From NCBI GenBank assembly GCA_000146045.2, contig BK006936.2, positions 192,001 through 256,000 on the forward strand: a DNA stretch of 64,000 nucleotides. Direction: 5' to 3'. The notes beneath the pieces are model-generated. The model worked only from the letters and a program-made list of their open reading frames with translations, was not told where the DNA came from and did no database searches. The stretch is from TPA_inf: Saccharomyces (taxonomy: Eukaryota). Made by a program: the position numbers and the translations under genes. Positions within the stretch are counted from its first letter, which is position 1. The number at the start of each line of letters is the position of its first letter. Below are positions 3,703 to 46,324 of this stretch, piece after piece.

Positions 3703-5493
3703 TGTTTGTGCGCAAACCGAGAGATGAGTATTTAACAAAAAAAAGAAAGGAAATGATATGATTATGATTTTATGTTTATAAAGCTTTTATCCAATGCGTT
3801 GTTTTTTCTTGCATATTTATACTTTTTGCGCTCATGGAGGGAGTTAATCAATACGCATGACGTCTAGTTAATTCACAGGTAGTACTGTATATTTATATGT
3901 TTACACAATAATTATGTATTAAGTAGTGATTAGTAAAAAAAACTAAGAGGTTGAAAGTCATCAACCCTTATATTAATTTCAACGAATTTCGCTGATGACG
4001 TCAGGGTAGTTCTCTTGCTTAGGTCAATGTAAAAATGCCAGGGTAATACAAAACCAAGCTCTGAACCGCCCAACTTATCTGTAATGATGCATGTATACCT
4101 TACAATGATTTTTTTTCTCCTATTATGGAATTAATATTGGAATCCATGTTTGTGAACAGCCTTCTCCGCAATTTAGCTTCAAGCTAATAAGTGGTTATTG
4201 TTTGCGCGCGCTTGAAGGCAAGGATCATCGCTTTTTTCTTCTCACCATTGAATTTAAGGGACGCCGATTAGCATAATACACTTATCAACAACAACCGGAT
4301 GTGTGTTATCTATCAGTGGTGGAAGGATTGGTAAGCAATTTGGTTTGATCCAGAGGACTAAGAAAAAAAAAACGGCTCATCAAAGAAATTAGTTCAATTG
4401 AGTGGTTTAATAGACAAAGTTTGGAAAGATAACAGAAGTAGAAAAAGTAAAAATCTACACATGACACTCAACACATGTGGACAGCAAGAGGGCAGATAGA
4501 TAAGTCGACACTGCAAATTGTTGTGTATGTAATAGCCCTGGGTGCAGGTTGGCCAAAACTGTTCAACAGCTCGCCCATTTGAAGGTTCAACAGGCCGCCA
4601 GAAATGTTCAACAGATTGTGCCGCTATGATACGTAACTTATATATAGCAGCGTGTATAATATTAGGACCATAATAAAATGAATGGCATGAAAATAACGAC
4701 AACAATCTCAACAGCAAACAAATTCACAATACAGTCATGGGCAGCATAAACTTCATATTTGCTTTACATCTTTTAGTTGTTTTATTTTTCATCATCGCCA
4801 TCCCTAGCTACGCCATGTATCCATTTTTACCATTTATCCTTACATCGCTCGTATTTGCTCGTTCTGATAACTCTAATAATCGTTATTGACAAGTTGGTTC
4901 AAGGTCAAAAATTTTGTTATTACAATCACTGAGCAATACGCTGTTTTTCCATAGTATGGAGGCATTTTTTTTTCTGTGAATGTACGTATATTTTACTGTA
5001 TACTTCATTAATATTTGGGAAATAGACATATTTTAAGATTATTTTTTAGATCCTGTTTACGTAAAAGACAATAATATAGGTGTGTAAATTATACCCTAAG
5101 TTCTTCTCAAGGATGTAAGACTTCCACAAGAGAACCGGCAATTTTATATGATAATACTATTTTTTCTTTGGCTTTACATGTAGTCGTTTATTATCCTATT
5201 GAATCAGCAATTATCACATCTCAGCTTTCATTACTTTTGATGACTGTTTCTCAACTCCATGTCATTCTTACACTGTGTATGATACTAATCGATAGATGAT
5301 CGTTGATTATTCCTTCAACAGATTCTGTCTAAAAAATGGTAAAACTGTTGCTACTAATCAATATCATATAATTGATCCTTATTCAACAATATCTACAACG
5401 AAAAAGGAGATTAAAAAAATGCATGCTAAGTAAATGAAGGTTTTCATCTGTCCCTGATGTTTTTCTTCTTCAAGCACGTTAACCAGTAATCAA

Positions 5494-5628: not shown

Positions 5629-5699
5629 TGCGCAAGCCCGGAATCGAACCGGGGGCCCAACGATGGCAACGTTGGATTTTACCACTAAACCACTTGCGC
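5629..5699 (-). tRNA. tG(GCC): tRNA-Gly, anticodon GCC, 71 nt
   Basis: Reverse complement reads GCGCAAGTGGTTTAGTGGTAAAATCCAACGTTGCCATCGTTGGGCCCCCGGTTCGATTCCGGGCTTGCGCA. Anticodon loop TTGCCAT gives GCC. Confidence 0.93.
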
Positions 5700-5713: not shown

Positions 5714-6054
5714 TGTTGTATCTCAAAATGAGATACGTCAGTATGACAATACGTCATCCTGAACGTTCATAAAACACATATGAAACAACCTTATAACAAA
5801 ACGAACAACATGAGATAAAACCCGGCCTTCCCTAGCTGAACTACCCAAAAGTATAAATGCCTGAACAATTAGTTTAGATCCGAGATTCCGCGCTTCCACC
5901 ACTTAGTATGATTCATATTTTATATAATATATAAGATAAGTAACATTCCGTGAATTAATCTGATAAACCGTTTTGACAACTGGTTACTTCCCTAAGACTG
6001 TTCATATTAGGATTGTCAAGACACTCCGATATTACTCGAGCCCGTAATACAACA
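5714..6054. mobile_element. Solo sigma element (Ty3 LTR), 341 bp, with TGTTGTAT...ATACAACA inverted termini, about 15 bp upstream of the tRNA-Gly 5' end
   Basis: The sequence tgttgtatctcaaaatgagatacgtcagtatgacaatacgtcatcctgaacg...gagcccgtaatacaaca matches the Ty3 sigma LTR as I recall it. Its position immediately 5' of a Pol III gene is the known Ty3 integration signature. Confidence 0.85.
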
Positions 6055-6146: not shown

Positions 6147-6312
6147 ATTGGAATGAAATCCTAATATCATCTTCTTACACCGCACGTGATAATAAACTAG
6201 TAACACGAATACAACTAAACAGATGATATTATAGACTTTCATTCCAACACATCTGTTGACTAGTAAGATGGATATTAGTCAATAGATGATGTTTCTTATT
6301 CCAAACTATCAT
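6147..6312 (-). repeat. Two degenerate Ty1/Ty2-type delta LTR fragments, minus orientation. One is internally deleted and bounded by inverted TTGGAATGAAA / TTTCATTCCAACA ends
   Basis: The reverse complement reads tgttggaatgaaagtctataatatcatc...gttactagtttattatcacgtgcggtgtaagaagatga, which has delta-like architecture. A second start, ttggaataagaaacatcatctattgactaat, lies at 6253..6310 on the minus strand. Confidence 0.5.
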
Positions 6313-25469: not shown

Positions 25470-28400
25470 ATGAAAGTGAAGAAATCAACTAGATCAAAAG
25501 TTTCGACAGCATGTGTCAATTGCAGAAAAAGGAAAATCAAATGCACAGGTAAATATCCATGTACCAACTGCATTTCTTACGATTGTACGTGTGTATTCCT
25601 AAAAAAACATTTACCGCAGAAGGAGGATAGTTCCCAGTCTTTGCCTACTACAGCTGTTGCTCCACCCTCTTCCCACGCCAATGTAGAGGCTTCAGCAGAT
25701 GTACAGCATCTGGACACTGCGATTAAGCTAGATAATCAATATTACTTCAAACTGATGAACGACCTGATACAGACTCCAGTCTCTCCGAGTGCGACGCATG
25801 CTCCTGATACTTCCAATAATCCTACTAATGATAATAATATTCTCTTTAAAGATGATTCCAAATATCAAAATCAACTGGTTACGTATCAAAATATTCTGAC
25901 AAATTTGTACGCTCTGCCGCCTTGTGATGACACTCAGCTCTTGATTGATAAAACGAAGTCGCAGTTGAATAACCTGATTAACAGTTGGAATCCCGAAATA
26001 AACTACCCCAAGCTTTCCAGTTTCTCTCCTCGCCCACAAAGATCGATAGAAACGTATCTTTTAACCAACAAGTATAGAAATAAAATACACATGACGAGGT
26101 TCTCCTTTTGGACAGACCAAATGGTTAAATCACAAAGTCCAGATTCATTTCTAGCCACCACTCCACTAGTAGATGAAGTATTTGGTCTTTTCTCTCCAAT
26201 ACAGGCTTTTTCACTAAGAGGTATAGGATATTTAATTAAAAAAAATATCGAAAACACGGGTTCATCGATGTTAATAGATACAAAGGAAACTATTTATCTA
26301 ATATTAAGATTGTTTGATTTGTGTTATGAACATTTGATCCAAGGTTGCATCTCTATTTCTAATCCATTAGAGAACTATCTTCAAAAAATAAAGCAAACTC
26401 CTACTACGACGGCATCTGCTAGTTTGCCTACTTCCCCAGCACCTTTATCTAACGATTTAGTCATTTCTGTTATTCATCAACTACCTCAGCCATTTATACA
26501 ATCGATTACCGGGTTTACGACTACTCAATTGATAGAAAATTTACATGATTCATTTTCGATGTTTCGAATAGTTACTCAAATGTATGCTCAACATAGGAAG
26601 CGCTTTGCGGAATTTTTAAACCAAGCTTTCTCCTTGCCCCATCAAGAAAAGAGTGTTTTATTCTCGTCATTCTGCTCATCAGAATATCTTCTATCTACTC
26701 TTTGTTACGCATACTACAATGTTACCCTATATCACATGTTGGACATAAACACTTTAGATTACCTAGAGATTTTAGTGTCATTGCTAGAAATCCAAAATGA
26801 AATTGATGAGCGTTTTGGATTTGAAAAAATGCTAGAAGTTGCGGTTACATGCTCCACTAAGATGGGATTGTCTCGTTGGGAGTATTATGTTGGAATAGAC
26901 GAAAATACTGCCGAACGGAGAAGAAAAATATGGTGGAAAATATACAGTCTGGAAAAGCGTTTTTTAACTGATCTTGGTGATTTATCCTTAATAAATGAAC
27001 ATCAAATGAATTGTCTCTTGCCGAAGGATTTCAGGGACATGGGATTCATTAACCATAAAGAATTTTTAACGAAAATTGGTACGTCCTCTTTATCACCGTC
27101 ATCGCCCAAGCTAAAAAACTTGTCATTGTCCAGGCTTATTGAATATGGTGAGTTAGCGATAGCCCAAATTGTTGGAGATTTTTTTTCAGAGACTCTTTAT
27201 AATGAGAAATTCACGTCTTTAGAAGTATCCGTTAAACCCACAATTATCAGACAAAAGTTATTGGAGAAAGTTTTTGAGGACATTGAATCTTTTAGGTTAA
27301 AATTGGCCAAAATAAAGCTTCACACCTCAAGAGTTTTTCAAGTAGCTCACTGCAAATATCCAGAATATCCAAAAAACGATCTAATTGAAGCAGCTAAATT
27401 TGTAAGTTACCATAAAAATACATGGTTCTCCATCTTGGGTGCTGTTAACAATCTTATTGCTAGGCTATCTGAAGATCCAGAGGTGATAACTGAGCAAAGC
27501 ATGAAATATGCGAATGAAATGTTTCAAGAATGGAGGGAAATTAATCAATTCTTAATACAGGTTGATACTGATTTTATTGTTTGGGCATGTTTGGACTTTT
27601 ATGAACTGATATTTTTCGTGATGGCTTCAAAATTTTATGTGGAAGACCCGCACATCACTTTAGAGGATGTTATCAACACTTTGAAAGTTTTTAAGAGAAT
27701 AACTAACATTATTTCTTTTTTTAATAATAATTTGGACGAGAAGGATTATGATTGTCAAACTTTCAGGGAGTTTTCGAGAAGTTCGAGTTTGGTTGCCATA
27801 TCCATAAGAATCATATTTTTAAAATACTGCTATGCCGAACAAATTGATAGAGCCGAATTCATCGAACGTTTGAAAGAAGTTGAACCGGGTCTAAGTGACC
27901 TTTTGCGTGAGTTTTTTGATACCCGCTCTTTTATTTACAGGTACATGTTGAAATCCGTTGAAAAATCAGGCTTTCATTTAATAATTAGAAAAATGTTAGA
28001 AAGCGACTATAAATTTTTGTATAGAGACAAATTGGCCACTGGTAATATTCCAGACCAAGGAAATTCAAGCCAAATTTCTCAGTTGTATGACAGTACTGCT
28101 CCTTCATACAACAATGCTTCTGCCTCAGCAGCAAACTCACCGTTGAAGTTATCGTCTTTGTTGAACTCTGGAGAGGAATCGTACACTCAAGACGCATCAG
28201 AAAATGTTCCATGTAATCTGCGGCATCAAGATCGATCGTTACAACAGACAAAAAGACAACATTCTGCGCCTAGCCAAATAAGCGCTAATGAGAATAATAT
28301 ATACAACTTGGGTACTTTAGAGGAGTTTGTCAGCAGTGGTGACCTGACTGATTTATATCATACTCTGTGGAATGACAATACTTCATATCCCTTCTTATGA
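25470..28400 (+). CDS. PDR3: Zn2Cys6 pleiotropic drug resistance transcription factor Pdr3 (976 aa)
   Basis: Starts [39 protein letters not shown], a Zn(II)2Cys6 cluster. ATG at 25470. The track start at 25461 is a GTG, not ATG. Confidence 0.92.
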
Positions 28401-28889
28401 AAACGCAAAGAAAATAGGGAAGCAGAGCATAACCATAGTAAATGGGACACTTATAACTCAAGAATTTAATTGACCCCCTACTCATACTGAGGAATGTGGC
28501 GTCCTCGTCATTATATGTTCGTAAGCTAATTGGGCGAAACTTTAGTCTGTCCTTTCTGTTCGGTCTTCACATAAGATCAACGATTTCTTCATTAATTTTG
28601 GGCGCGCTGTTCAAAAAGGTCCTGGAATGCAGCTGTTCAGTAGATATTATATGTAATTATAGCCTCAACAATTTTTCTTGGATCGATTGGATGAGCTATT
28701 CACCCATAGAGGCTGGATTTTCCTTAGTTTGAGAATCTGCGACTCCTTCGCGTCTGACATCGGTCACTACGCTTTCTCTATTCTGCTGCCGTTGCGTTAC
28801 TTTGATAAATTCATTTCTTTTTTTTTGTAATACAGAAGAATTTCTGGTAAGTTTTTGGCCTGTGCGTGTTCATAAGGGAAAGACATTGC

Positions 28890-29036
28890 GCATATAGGAA
28901 AATGTTAGAAGTTCAACATCGATAAAATGATATTGTGTAGAAACACCGATTCCCTTTTGTAGATTTCTATATCTTTGGGTATGACTTCTAGTATTATCTG
29001 TATATCTAATATTATAGTCTCTAACAACAGTGGAAT
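28890..29036 (+). repeat. 3'-proximal ~150 bp of an older solo delta LTR, interrupted by the Ty1 insertion
   Basis: catataggaaaatgttagaagttcaacatcgataaaatgatattgtgtagaaacaccgattcccttttgtagatttctatatctttgggtatgacttctagtattatctgtatatctaatattatagtctctaacaacagtggaat parallels the 3' half of the downstream Ty1 LTR. It continues at 34953 after the element. Confidence 0.75.
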
Positions 29037-29329
29037 TGTTGGAATAAAAATCCACTATCGTCTATCAACTAATAGTTATATTATCAATATATTATCATAT
29101 ACGGTGTTAAGATGATGACATAAGTTATGAGAAGCTGTCATCGAAGTTAGAGGAAGCTGAAGTGCAAGGATTGATAATGTAATAGGATAATGAAACATAT
29201 AAAACGGAATGAGGAATAATCGTAATATTAGTATGTAGAAATATAGATTCCATTTTGAGGATTCCTATATCCTTGAGGAGAACTTCTAGTGTATATTCTG
29301 TATACCTAATATTATAGCCTTTATCAACA

Positions 29330-30652
29330 ATGGAATCCCAACAATTATCTCAACATTCCCCGATTTTTCATGGTAGCGCCTGTGCTTCGGTTACTTCTAA
29401 AGAAGTCCAAACAACTCAAGATCCGTTAGACATTTCAGCTTCCAAAACAGAAGAATGTGAGAAGGTTTCCACTCAGGCTAATTCTCAACAGCCAACAACA
29501 CCTCCCTCATCTGCTGTTCCAGAGAACCATCATCATGCCTCTCCTCAAGCTGCTCAAGTACCATTGCCACAAAATGGGCCGTACCCACAGCAGCGCATGA
29601 TGAATACCCAACAAGCCAATATTTCTGGCTGGCCAGTATACGGGCACCCATCCTTGATGCCGTATCCACCTTATCAAATGTCACCTATGTACGCTCCACC
29701 TGGGGCACAATCACAGTTTACACAATATCCACAATATGTTGGAACACATTTGAACACCCCGTCACCTGAGTCAGGTAATTCATTTCCTGATTCATCCTCA
29801 GCAAAGTCTAATATGACATCCACTAATCAACATGTCAGACCACCGCCAATCTTAACCTCACCTAATGACTTTCTAAATTGGGTTAAAATATACATCAAAT
29901 TTTTACAAAATTCGAATCTCGGTGATATTATTCCGACAGCAACAAGAAAAGCCGTACGTCAGATGACTGATGACGAACTCACCTTCTTATGTCACACCTT
30001 TCAACTATTTGCTCCATCTCAATTCTTACCCCCCTGGGTTAAAGACATCTTATCTGTTGATTATACAGATATCATGAAAATTCTTTCCAAAAGCATTAAC
30101 AAAATGCAGTCTGATACTCAAGAGGTAAATGACATTACGACCCTAGCAACTTTGCATTATAATGGAAGTACACCTGCAGATGCATTTGAAGCAGAAGTCA
30201 CAAACATTCTTGACAGACTAAACAACAATGGCATTCCTATCAATAACAAGGTAGCATGCCAATTCATTATGAGAGGTCTATCTGGCGAGTACAAATTTTT
30301 ACCGTACGCACGTCATCGATGTATACATATGACAGTTGCTGATCTGTTTTCAGACATACATTCTATGTATGAAGAACAACAGGAATCAAAACGTAATAAA
30401 TCTACTTATAGGAGAAGTCCGAGTGATGAGAAGAAAGACTCTCGCACCTATACGAATACAACCAAACCCAAATCCATAACTCGGAATTCCCAAAAACCAA
30501 ATAATTCGCAATCAAGAACAGCCAGGGCTCATAACGTATCCACATTTAATAACTCTCCCGGCCCTGATAACGATCTCATAAGAGGATCGACTACTGAACC
30601 GATTCAATTGAAGAATACACACGACCTTCACCTTAGGCCAGGAACTTACTGA
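29330..30652 (+). CDS. TYA: Ty1 TYA (Gag, capsid protein), 440 aa. The start codon lies inside the 5' LTR
   Basis: Starts [34 protein letters not shown]...LHLRPGTY. The Gag N-terminal and central regions differ at many positions from canonical Ty1-H3 Gag as I remember it (see findings). Confidence 0.9.
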
Positions 30653-33600
30653 ATCTACGGTAAATCACACTAATCATTCTGATGATGAACTCCCTGGACA
30701 CCTCCTTCTTGATTCAGGAGCATCACGAACCCTTATAAGATCTGCTCATCACATACACTCAGCATCATCTAATCCTGACATAAACGTAGTTGATGCTCAA
30801 AAAAGAAATATACCAATTAACGCTATTGGTGACCTACAATTTCACTTCCAGGACAACACCAAAACATCAATAAAGGTATTGCACACTCCTAACATAGCCT
30901 ATGACTTACTCAGTTTGAATGAATTGGCTGCAGTAGATATCACAGCATGCTTTACCAAAAACGTCTTAGAACGATCTGACGGCACTGTACTTGCACCTAT
31001 CGTAAAATATGGAGACTTTTACTGGGTATCTAAAAAGTACTTGCTTCCATCAAATATCTCCGTACCCACCATCAATAATGTCCATACAAGTGAAAGTACA
31101 CGCAAATATCCTTATCCTTTCATTCATCGAATGCTTGCACATGCCAATGCACAGACAATTCGATACTCACTTAAAAATAACACCATCACGTATTTTAACG
31201 AATCAGATGTCGACTGGTCTAGTGCTATTGACTATCAATGTCCTGATTGTTTAATCGGCAAAAGCACCAAACACAGACATATCAAAGGTTCACGACTAAA
31301 ATACCAAAATTCATACGAACCCTTTCAATACCTACATACTGACATATTTGGTCCAGTTCACAACCTACCAAAAAGTGCACCATCCTATTTCATCTCATTT
31401 ACTGATGAGACAACAAAATTCCGTTGGGTTTATCCATTACACGACCGTCGCGAGGACTCTATCCTCGATGTTTTTACTACGATACTAGCTTTTATTAAAA
31501 ACCAGTTTCAGGCCAGTGTCTTGGTTATACAAATGGACCGTGGTTCTGAGTATACTAACAGAACTCTCCATAAATTCCTTGAAAAAAATGGTATAACTCC
31601 ATGCTATACAACCACAGCGGATTCCCGAGCACATGGAGTCGCTGAACGGCTAAACCGTACCTTATTAGATGACTGCCGTACTCAACTGCAATGTAGTGGT
31701 TTACCGAACCATTTATGGTTCTCTGCAATCGAATTTTCTACTATTGTGAGAAATTCACTAGCTTCACCTAAAAGCAAAAAATCTGCAAGACAACATGCTG
31801 GCTTGGCAGGACTTGATATCAGTACTTTGTTACCTTTCGGTCAACCTGTTATCGTCAATGATCACAACCCTAACTCCAAAATACATCCTCGTGGCATCCC
31901 AGGCTACGCTCTACATCCGTCTCGAAACTCTTATGGATATATCATCTATCTTCCATCCTTAAAGAAGACAGTAGATACAACTAACTATGTTATTCTTCAG
32001 GGCAAGGAATCCAGATTAGATCAATTCAATTACGACGCACTCACTTTCGATGAAGACTTAAACCGTTTAACTGCTTCATATCAATCGTTCATTGCGTCAA
32101 ATGAGATCCAACAATCCAATGATCTTAACATAGAATCAGACCATGACTTTCAATCTGATATTGAACTATATCCTGAGCAACCGAGAAATGTCCTTTCAAA
32201 AGCTGTGAGTCCAACCGATTCCACACCCCCGTCAACTCATACTGAAGATTCGAAACGTGTTTCTAAAACCAATATTCGCGCACCCAGAGAAGTTGACCCC
32301 AACATATCTGAATCTAATATTCTTCCATCTAAGAAGAGATCTAGCACCCCCCAAATTTCCGATATCGAGAGTACCGATTCGGGTGGTATGCATAGATTAG
32401 ATGTTCCTTTACTTGCTCCCATGTCCCAATCTAACACACATGAGTCGTCGTACGCCAGTAAATCTAAAGATTTCAGACACTCAGACTCGTACAGTGACAA
32501 TGAGACTAATCATACAAACGTACCAATATCCAGTACGGGTGGTACCAATAATAAAACTGTTCCGCAGACAAGCGAACAGGAGACTGAGAAAAGGATTATA
32601 CACCGTTCACCTTCGATCGATACTTCCTCATCAGAAAGTAATTCACTACACCACGTCGTTCCTATCAAAACGTCAGATACCTGTCCTAAGGAGAATACAG
32701 AGGAATCTATAATTGCTGATCTTCCACTTCCCGATCTGCCTCCAGAACCTCCTACCGAATTATCAGACTCCTTTAAGGAACTTCCACCGATCAATTCTCG
32801 TCAAACTAATTCCAGTTTGGGTGGTATTGGTGACTCTAATGCCTATACTACTATCAACAGTAAGAAAAGATCATTAGAAGATAATGAAACTGAAATTAAG
32901 GTATCACGAGACACATGGAATACTAAGAATATGCGTAGTTTAGAACCTCCGAGATCGAAGAAACGAATTCACCTGATTGCAGCTGTAAAAGCAGTAAAAT
33001 CAATCAAACCAATACGAACAACCTTACGATACGATGAGGCAATCACCTATAATAAAGATATTAAAGAAAAAGAAAAATATATCGAGGCATACCACAAAGA
33101 AGTCAATCAACTGTTGAAGATGAAAACTTGGGACACTGACAAATATTATGACAGAAAAGAAATAGACCCTAAAAGAGTAATAAATTCAATGTTTATCTTC
33201 AACAGGAAACGTGACGGTACTCATAAAGCTAGATTTGTTGCAAGAGGTGATATTCAGCATCCTGACACTTACGACTCAGGCATGCAATCCAATACCGTAC
33301 ATCACTATGCATTAATGACATCCCTGTCACTTGCATTAGACAATAACTACCATATTACACAATTAGACATATCTTCGGCATATTTGTATGCAGACATCAA
33401 AGAAGAATTATACATAAGACCTCCACCACATTTAGGAATGAATGATAAGTTGATACGTTTGAAGAAATCACTTTATGGATTGAAACAAAGTGGAGCGAAC
33501 TGGTACGAAACTATCAAATCATACCTGATAAAACAATGTGGTATGGAAGAAGTTCGTGGATGGTCATGCGTATTTAAAAACAGTCAAGTGACAATTTGTT

Positions 33601-34598
33601 TATTCGTAGATGATATGGTATTGTTTAGCAAAAATCTAAATTCAAACAAAAGAATTATAGACAAGCTTAAGATGCAATACGACACCAAGATTATAAATCT
33701 AGGCGAAAGTGATGAGGAAATTCAATATGACATTCTTGGCTTGGAAATCAAATACCAAAGAGGTAAATACATGAAATTGGGTATGGAAAACTCATTAACT
33801 GAAAAAATACCCAAACTAAACGTACCTTTGAACCCAAAAGGAAGGAAACTTAGCGCTCCAGGTCAACCAGGTCTATATATAGACCAGCAAGAACTAGAGC
33901 TAGAAGAAGATGATTACAAAATGAAGGTACATGAAATGCAAAAGCTGATAGGTCTAGCATCATATGTTGGATATAAATTTAGATTTGACCTATTATACTA
34001 CATCAACACACTTGCACAACATATACTATTTCCGTCCAAGCAAGTGTTAGATATGACATATGAATTGATACAGTTCATATGGAATACGAGAGATAAGCAA
34101 TTAATATGGCACAAAAGCAAACCTGTTAAGCCAACAAATAAATTAGTTGTTATAAGCGATGCCTCGTATGGTAACCAACCGTATTATAAATCACAAATTG
34201 GCAACATATATTTACTTAATGGAAAAGTAATTGGAGGAAAGTCCACCAAGGCTTCATTAACATGTACTTCAACCACGGAAGCAGAAATACACGCAATAAG
34301 TGAATCTGTCCCATTATTAAATAATCTAAGTTACCTGATACAAGAACTCGACAAGAAACCAATTACCAAAGGATTACTAACCGACAGTAAATCTACAATC
34401 AGTATAATTATATCCAATAATGAAGAGAAATTTAGAAACAGATTTTTTGGTACTAAAGCAATGAGACTGAGAGATGAAGTATCAGGAAATCATCTGCACG
34501 TATGCTATATCGAAACCAAAAAGAATATTGCAGACGTAATGACCAAACCTCTTCCGATAAAAACATTCAAACTATTAACAAACAAATGGATTCATTAG
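30636..34598 (+). CDS. TYB: Ty1 TYB (Pol: protease, integrase, reverse transcriptase/RNase H), expressed as a Gag-Pol fusion by +1 ribosomal frameshift at CTT-AGG-C (30632..30638)
   Basis: The heptamer CTTAGGC lies 12 nt before the TYA stop. The +1 frame is open from there. Motifs present: protease DSGAS, integrase HTDIFGP...DRGSEYT...ERLNRT, RT FVDDM. C-terminus ...[12 protein letters not shown]. The first Met in this frame is at 30879. Confidence 0.9.
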
Positions 34599-34952
34599 AT
34601 CTATTACATTATGGGTGGTATGTTGGAATAAAAATCCACTATCGTCTATCAACTAATAGTTATATTATCAATATATTATCATATACGGTGTTAAGATGAT
34701 GACATAAGTTATGAGAAGCTGTCATCGAAGTTAGAGGAAGCTGAAGTGCAAGGATTGATAATGTAATAGGATAATGAAACATATAAAACGGAATGAGGAA
34801 TAATCGTAATATTAGTATGTAGAAATATAGATTCCATTTTGAGGATTCCTATATCCTTGAGGAGAACTTCTAGTATATTCTGTATACCTAATATTATAGC
34901 CTTTATCAACAATGGAATCCCAACAATTATCTCAACATTCCCCCATTTCTCA

Positions 34953-34990
34953 GGAATCCCAACAGTTATGACAAAATTTATCAGAATTCC
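34953..34990 (+). repeat. Distal end of the older delta LTR split by the Ty1 insertion
   Basis: ggaatcccaacagttatgacaaaatttatc resembles delta 3' ends (ggaatcccaacaattacatcaaaatcc). Together with 28890..29036 it reconstructs one pre-existing LTR. Confidence 0.55.
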
Positions 34991-35073
34991 CAGTTTCATA
35001 CATGTTTGATATTTATAGATAATTCATAATGACGGTTTATTTATTCTGGTAAGTTATGATATCATGTAAAACG

Positions 35074-35155
35074 AGGCAACTTGGCCGAGTGGTTAAGGCG
35101 AAAGATTAGAAATCTTTTGGGCTTTGCCCGCGCAGGTTCGAGTCCTGCAGTTGTC
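35074..35155 (+). tRNA. tS(AGA): tRNA-Ser, anticodon AGA, 82 nt with a long variable arm
   Basis: GGCAACTTGGCCGAGTGGTTAAGGCGAAAGATTAGAAATCTTTTGGGCTTTGCCCGCGCAGGTTCGAGTCCTGCAGTTGTCG. Anticodon loop TTAGAAA. B-box GGTTCGAGTCC. A T-run follows. Confidence 0.93.
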
Positions 35156-35635
35156 GTTATTTTTTGGACAGTAATAAGAGTACGTAAAGTCAATGGAATA
35201 CGTGGTAAAAGCATCACGTTTATGTTTTATTAAAAGATTGGCATAGAACTTGGCCTTCTTCGTAACGACTTATCACCCGTTAAAAGTATGCTATATGAGT
35301 TATATCGGCTGCAGTGTATTTCTTCCTGGCTCATTTAAAGCTAATGAAATGTACCTCTCGCTTCATTTTCTAAGGTAGTGTTTTGAAGGCGTATGTATGT
35401 AATGTCACCCGGACTTTTGTAAAGAAAAAATTTTGAGTTTATGTCTTTCCGAAAATTTTTACCGATGAGCATTGAAAAGTTGCATTATTAAATTTGGTAG
35501 CGTAAAAACCACCGATTAAACAGGTAGTGTAGGTTGTAAATTAAAGATCATATTCTTTCCTGTTTACATCCAGTTTTACGTTGTTGGCCGTATTGGTATA
35601 TTTCTAGTATCAGTTACACATATTTCATTGAAAGT

Positions 35636-45467: not shown

Positions 45468-46208
45468 TTTCTAAACTTGTAGTTTATGTGCTTTATAGTT
45501 AATGATCACGACGGCAATGACAAAAACTGAATATCTTGATCTCTCCTTTTGACGATGTCAGTGAATCCCGGTTAATGATATTCTGTTTTTCACGGGGTGG
45601 AAAAGAGGGGAGCTTGAATCATACTAAAAAAGGAATGTCAAAGAGCTATATAATTCGAATAAAAAGTAAAAGAAACGAAAGGTTTTATTAAAGGGTTTGG
45701 AGCTGTTTTCGGACTGAAAGCCAGTAACAAGCTTGTGTAGGAGTTTGTCTGAAAACCATCTTCATTTCAAATAAGAGAGCGAGTAATTTTTAAATAATTT
45801 CTTTTCTGAACTACTTAAATCGCTATGTACCTTGCGAAAATTATTCTTTAATAGTTTAACTAAAAGTAAAAAGTTAGAAATCATAAATAAAAAATCAAAG
45901 AGACAAATCTCGTTGCAAAAGCTTGAAAAATAGTGCTTTACCAACAGGTTGGCAAACCAGAATGCTAACAAAACTTAAAATCCCATTTCCCAAGAGGATC
46001 AATCAATCATATTTACCTTGATAGTATAGGATACAAGTGTCTGTGCAGGCCTCCGATAACATGTAAAGTAATAAAAGTAGGAGTACTTGCTTTCAGCAGA
46101 AAATGAAAAAAAGAACGTTCAAACAGACTGAAAATATAGCTATTCAACTGGCACCTACTAATATCAATAATAATAAATTAATCTTGAGCAAATTGATCCT
46201 ACATAAAT

Positions 46209-46324
46209 CATGTGACTTATTTATTTAATTATTATTAAGTAAAAAAGATTTTCTATTTAAATTTATTAATTAATTTTTTTTCTTAAATAATTATTTTATG
46301 TTTTTGTTTTCCGAAAAAGAAAAA
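46209..46324. other. CEN2: Point centromere CEN2. CDEI is at 46209..46216 (catgtgac, RC GTCACATG = RTCACRTG). CDEII is 46217..46298 (82 bp, >90% A+T). CDEIII is ~46299..46324 (tgtttttgttttccgaaaaagaaaaa with the invariant CCGAAA core)
   Basis: The tripartite structure, with canonical spacing and the CDEIII TGTTT(A/T)TGNTTTCCGAAA motif, is read directly from the sequence. It lies between YBL001C and YBR001C, as expected for chrII. Confidence 0.93.

Follow-up and report, generated by a model that had tools for sequence, protein, structure and literature searches.

YBLWTy1-1, a full-length Ty1' retrotransposon inserted into an older, truncated delta remnant upstream of a tRNA-Ser gene in Saccharomyces cerevisiae S288C

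We analyzed a 64,000-nucleotide stretch of Saccharomyces DNA (GenBank assembly GCA_000146045.2, contig BK006936.2, positions 192,001 to 256,000 of the forward strand), referred to below as the window, in whose coordinates all positions are given unless marked otherwise. Between the genes PDR3 and UTP20, on the plus strand at 29037-34952, lies a long terminal repeat (LTR) retrotransposon that is almost certainly YBLWTy1-1 (SGD S000006808), a full-length member of the Ty1' (Ty1 prime) subfamily on chromosome II of S. cerevisiae S288C. Three lines of evidence lead to this identification. First, its Gag (YBL005W-A, 440 aa) and its Gag-Pol (YBL005W-B, 1,755 aa) match exactly the S288C proteins NP_009550.1 / Q12266 and NP_009549.1 / Q12490, both named Transposon Ty1-BL. 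Second, the neighboring open reading frames (ORFs) are exact protein matches to PDR3 and UTP20 of the same strain. Third, the two published primers used to clone YBLWTy1-1 (PMC10951436) each have one match in the window, at 28946 and 34988, and thereby bracket the element. In none of these comparisons was a difference from YBLWTy1-1 detected, and we regard the two as the same object. The element is therefore already known, as an annotated feature of the reference genome that has been studied experimentally.

An initial annotation of the window, made by reading the letters without database searches, had proposed an intact 5.9-kb Ty1-family element with both LTRs, a primer-binding site (PBS), a polypurine tract (PPT), open TYA and TYB frames and a CTTAGGC frameshift heptamer. 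All of these were located, either where they had been placed or a few bases away (Table 1). The element also has the remaining marks of the Ty1 family of Ty1/copia LTR retrotransposons (Pseudoviridae), namely the order TYA, protease, integrase, reverse transcriptase and RNase H, a 5-bp target-site duplication and a position upstream of a gene that RNA polymerase III (Pol III) transcribes. The Ty1 PBS is complementary to the 3' terminus of initiator tRNA-Met, which primes minus-strand synthesis. A second copy of the PPT sequence falls within the integrase-coding region, where Ty1 has its central polypurine tract. At the CUU-AGG-C heptamer, tRNA-Leu slips by +1 on CUU-A during the wait for the rare AGG codon; when A30635 is skipped accordingly, the Gag-Pol fusion is open for its full length without an internal stop, ending at 34598. 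Pfam domains along Gag-Pol (Pol_BBD at residues 459-533, rve at 663-763, SH3_retrovirus at 829-890 and RVT_2 at 1281-1488) follow the copia-type order, and the catalytic motifs of protease (DSGAS), integrase (HTDIFGP) and RNase H (ISDASYG) were found together with those of reverse transcriptase. With promoter-bearing LTRs, PBS, PPT, Gag, the frameshift site and the motifs of all four enzymes retained, the element has everything required for another round of transposition. A further candidate LTR start, TGTTGGAATA at 26888, was rejected as a chance match, lying as it does inside the PDR3 ORF.

Table 1 Features of the YBLWTy1-1 locus, in window coordinates
Feature	Position	Strand	Details
Whole element	29037-34952	+	5,916 bp
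5' LTR (delta)	29037-29370	+	334 bp, TGTTGG...TCA; TYA start codon inside, at 29330
PBS TGGTAGCGCC	29371-29380	+	adjoins the 5' LTR; single occurrence in the 64-kb window
TYA (gag) ORF, Ty1' type	29330-30652	+	440 aa; Pfam TYA PF01021, E = 2e-223
+1 programmed frameshift heptamer CTT-AGG-C	30632-30638	+	in the TYA frame, (30632-29330) mod 3 = 0
TYB (pol) frame	30636-34598	+	protease, integrase, reverse transcriptase, RNase H, in this order
Second TGGGTGGTA copy	32818-32826	+	within the integrase-coding region, element nt 3782-3790
PPT TGGGTGGTA	34612-34620	+	immediately 5' of the 3' LTR
3' LTR (delta)	34621-34952	+	332 bp, TGTTGG...TCA
Older delta-like LTR remnant, left part	28927-29036	+	LTR positions 189-298; blastn 79% over 111 bp, E = 4e-22
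Target-site duplication GGAAT, left copy	29032-29036	+	from sequence; present once at the empty loci of other strains
Target-site duplication GGAAT, right copy	34953-34957	+	from sequence
Older delta remnant, right part	34958-34978	+	LTR positions 299-319; weaker likeness maybe to ~34999 (...CCCAGTTTCA)
tRNA-Ser(AGA)	35075-35156	+	ARAGORN; Rfam tRNA, 58.8 bits

The 5' and 3' LTRs share 98.8% identity in BLAST alignment and are distinguished by two substitutions and a 2-bp indel. Only the 5' LTR has the indel, a GT at 29289-29290, and it is peculiar to the window, being absent from a second locus carrying the same element (L009, introduced below). Both substitutions lie near the end of U5, a G/C difference at LTR position 326 and a T/C difference at position 331 (29362 and 29367 versus 34946 and 34949). 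In the 5' LTR of L009 (L009:13568-13898) the G/C difference is clearly in common, and the T/C difference is less certain owing to a 1-nt deletion among the final bases of that LTR. The T/C difference also sets residue 13 of Gag, which is Phe here and would be Ser with the 3' LTR version; a related Gag has Ser.

Differences of this kind can be taken as a signal of age, with the copy being old, decaying and immobile and merely intact in appearance, and the substitution that gives Gag a residue shared by neither the 3' LTR version nor the related Gag fits such an account. We consider it very improbable, however, because both frames are fully open, the catalytic motifs are all present and the insertion is missing from most of the strains sampled. 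The copy has, moreover, been put to experiment. YBLWTy1-1 is reported to be transcriptionally active and, when cloned from S288C and marked with his3-AI, it retrotransposes with measurable retromobility, which point mutations in its capsid (Gag) lower 400- to 4,000-fold (PMC10951436). Competence for transposition, which the initial annotation had rated as potential, is thus experimentally established by the retromobility of the cloned copy. The same annotation had held that substantial divergence between the LTRs would imply an old and inactive copy; the LTRs are instead nearly identical, short of full identity.

Ty1' was reportedly defined in the original Ty survey of Kim et al. in 1998. The initial annotation was correct in assigning the element to the Ty1 family, but the subfamily can be refined to Ty1' rather than canonical Ty1. 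The gag is of the Ty1' type through its protein identity to YBLWTy1-1, which serves as the Ty1' reference element (PMC10951436, PMC12530519), and its divergence from canonical gag is the published one: reconstructed ancestral Ty1' and canonical Ty1 share 79% identity for Gag and over 90% for Pol (PMC10951436). Ty1' is the ancestral subfamily of S. cerevisiae; the gag of canonical Ty1 came from S. paradoxus (PMC7055915). That the element might nevertheless be a canonical, Ty1-H3-like Ty1 of no distinct subfamily is suggested by the overall architecture, the PBS, the +1 heptamer, the Pfam domains and the position upstream of a Pol III gene that it has in common with canonical Ty1, and by its database name, which is simply 'Ty1-BL'. 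This too seems very improbable, given that the literature names YBLWTy1-1 itself as the Ty1' reference, that a Gag as little as 79% identical to the canonical one is a published property of Ty1' and that a second S288C Gag, from the same 90% cluster, shares 97% identity with the Gag of the element. With Ty1-H3 (M18706) the element further shares the copia-type domain order, the 5-bp duplication and, by sequence, the segment of integrase with the bipartite nuclear localization signal that binds AC40. The two subfamilies differ in regulation as well, since Ty1' is without the self-encoded p22 copy-number control of canonical Ty1 and is restricted instead by the domesticated gene DRT2 (PMC10951436). 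Recent studies of how retrotransposons are restricted (DRT2, copy-number control) use YBLWTy1-1 as their standard Ty1' clone, and nothing new is added to it here. The value of the present check is that it shows the initial annotation, made from sequence only, to have been accurate, and that it sharpens the subfamily, the shortened target, the polymorphism among strains and an independent insertion close by.

We then considered the DNA into which the element was inserted. The flanks had been described as rejoining into the 3' end of a single delta LTR, ending at 34990, and this holds except for the end point, which lies at ~34978-34999. With one GGAAT removed, they align to LTR positions 188-319 without a gap across the junction (105/132 identical, E = 7e-30, blastn), and an LTR profile searched against the rejoined site with nhmmer gives E = 4e-27 over positions 189-319 of 332, with an envelope that extends the old remnant back to ~28907. 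The register of this alignment is specific: 17 of the 21 bases to the right of the junction match when one GGAAT is removed, as compared to 2-8 of 21 at shifts from -8 to +8, among which is the register that retains both copies.

The target was not, however, the whole solo LTR of the initial annotation. LTR positions 1-188 had no match in the 500 bp upstream or in the rejoined PDR3-UTP20 intergenic region (nhmmer, filters off), and blastn and the LTR profile together detected only positions 189-319 of 332, where a solo delta would be a complete LTR of ~330 bp with TG...CA ends and a duplication of its own. The insertion into older delta-like sequence stands, with a 3' fragment, rather than a complete LTR, as the target. 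Judged by its sequence, this target is a 5'-truncated delta remnant of ~130-170 bp that is ~80% identical to the LTR of the element. The other matches of the profile in the intergenic region were not significant; they comprised a weak one in inverted orientation at 28867-28915 (E = 0.32) and one of 16 nt at 28656-28671 (E = 4.8). The former, directly upstream of the old remnant and corresponding to LTR positions 243-291, may be a scrap of a still older LTR.

Presence or absence of the insertion in other strains was assessed in silico. Public assemblies were queried with the exact protein sequence of the upstream ORF (25470-28397), and ten loci (L001-L010) were returned, each with 10-kb flanks. 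In eight of the ten loci the site is empty, with a spacing between this ORF and the downstream 2,493-aa ORF of 1,315 bp versus 7,236 bp in the window; the 5,921 bp by which they differ amount to the element plus the 5-bp duplication. Seven S. cerevisiae assemblies (L001, L002, L004-L008) contain exactly the predicted 55-nt empty site with a single GGAAT. The eighth locus, L003, is empty too, with a variant in one flank, and exactly 5 bp are common to the alignments of its two flanks. L009 carries the same element with identical junctions, at 99.5% identity over 7.25 kb, and L010 carries a different, Ty2-like insertion. The L009 and L010 assemblies contain many frame-breaking single-base indels, probably errors of long-read sequencing, so that the intactness of the elements in those strains cannot be inferred.

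The empty sites with their single GGAAT mean that the duplication, as proposed in the initial annotation, is real and that the insertion is polymorphic; lacking as it is in most of the strains sampled, the insertion is younger than the diversification of the species. They also prove the integrase-type insertion into older delta-like sequence; Ty1 is not known to leave a site by precise excision. The opposing idea, that the delta-like flanks are the product of rearrangement or recombination among neighboring Ty elements or LTRs and that the GGAAT repeat is a coincidence, could appeal to the frequent rearrangement of Ty-rich regions upstream of tRNA genes, to a chance of roughly 1 in 1000 for a lone 5-bp repeat and to flanks that contain recognizable LTR only in part, but it is scarcely credible, being already refuted by the uninterrupted sequence in the empty loci and at odds with both the exact size difference and an ungapped alignment that exists in one register only.

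At this locus, integrase placed a reverse-transcribed cDNA into the older 5'-truncated delta remnant between PDR3 and tRNA-Ser(AGA), and its staggered cut led to duplication of the 5-bp GGAAT. The end of the 3' LTR is 122 bp from tRNA-Ser(AGA), with the element upstream, in agreement with the distance of about 120 bp and the Pol III-upstream window given in the initial annotation. Members of the Ty1 family integrate up to about 1 kb upstream of Pol III genes. In canonical Ty1, integrase is tethered to the Pol III subunit AC40 via the linker of a bipartite nuclear localization signal, with K617, M619, R620, S621 and L622 being required (PMC7459421), and a structure bearing on this tethering is available (PMC10050235). 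Residues 1178-1212 of the Gag-Pol studied here correspond to residues 596-630 of integrase (IN1), and all five required residues are kept (K617-NMRSL622 intact). The 122-bp placement would then reflect tethering to AC40 through this motif.

Nothing substantive speaks against this account as a whole, but four points weigh on parts of it. First, the LTRs are not identical, and therefore either the insertion is not very recent or gene conversion has touched the copy. Second, only the 3' ~40% of the older LTR is detectable, and 'solo LTR' therefore overstates the target. Third, tethering to AC40 at the insertion of YBLWTy1-1 would be carried over from experiments on canonical Ty1 to a Ty1' element. 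Fourth, the SGD feature name as applied here draws on protein accessions, the primers of the published papers and the SGD identifier.

The Ty2-like element of L010 (GCA_030035855.1; L010:13557-19567) lies in that old delta remnant too, 11 bp upstream of the YBLWTy1-1 insertion point, and is flanked by a duplication of its own, CTAAC. Ty2 shares its targeting with Ty1' and has delta LTRs related to those of Ty1', and here the two types are found at nearly the same site. The two insertions are distinct. The LTRs of the L010 element diverge from those of YBLWTy1-1 at many positions, its Gag begins with MESQQLHQNPHS..., unlike the Gag of YBLWTy1-1, and the L010 flank-plus-element DNA is 84-90% identical to the window where it can be aligned, with a portion of pol and the greater part of gag unaligned (megablast). 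The S288C-type insertion and the Ty2-like insertion thus indicate that the site was struck at least twice independently. We tentatively raise the possibility, which we hold to be less than even, that the delta remnant upstream of tS(AGA) is a recurrent fine-scale target, with Ty1' and Ty2-like insertions 11 bp apart, and that the differences in LTR U5 record gene conversion of the 5' LTR after insertion, changing Gag residue 13. Even if true, both readings would remain within known Ty biology.

Other traces of Ty elements occur in the window. The 5' end of tRNA-Gly(GCC) (5629-5699, minus strand) is 14 bp from the start of a ~340-bp LTR at 5714-6054 that has inverted termini TGTTGTAT...ATACAACA. 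This LTR resembles a solo Ty3 sigma at the typical position next to a Pol III start site. Two diverged delta-like remnants on the minus strand, at 5016-5294 (67%, LTR positions 46-332) and 6161-6249 (69%, positions 1-88), flank the tRNA-Ile(AAT)/tRNA-Gly(GCC) pair. Some protein-database entries attributed to bacteria (Streptococcus uberis, Streptococcus oralis and Xanthomonas citri) are pieces of Gag and Pol of yeast Ty1; they come from very short contigs of 369-3,362 bp and are most likely due to contamination of those assemblies with yeast DNA. Finally, the window contains a point-centromere layout at 46208-46322, with a CDEI-like ATCATGTGA, ~83 bp of very AT-rich DNA and the CDEIII consensus TGTTTTTGTTTTCCGAAAAAGAAA. 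The latter, at 46299-46322, is a perfect match to the consensus, for which 0.07 occurrences are expected by chance, and the layout is presumably CEN2.

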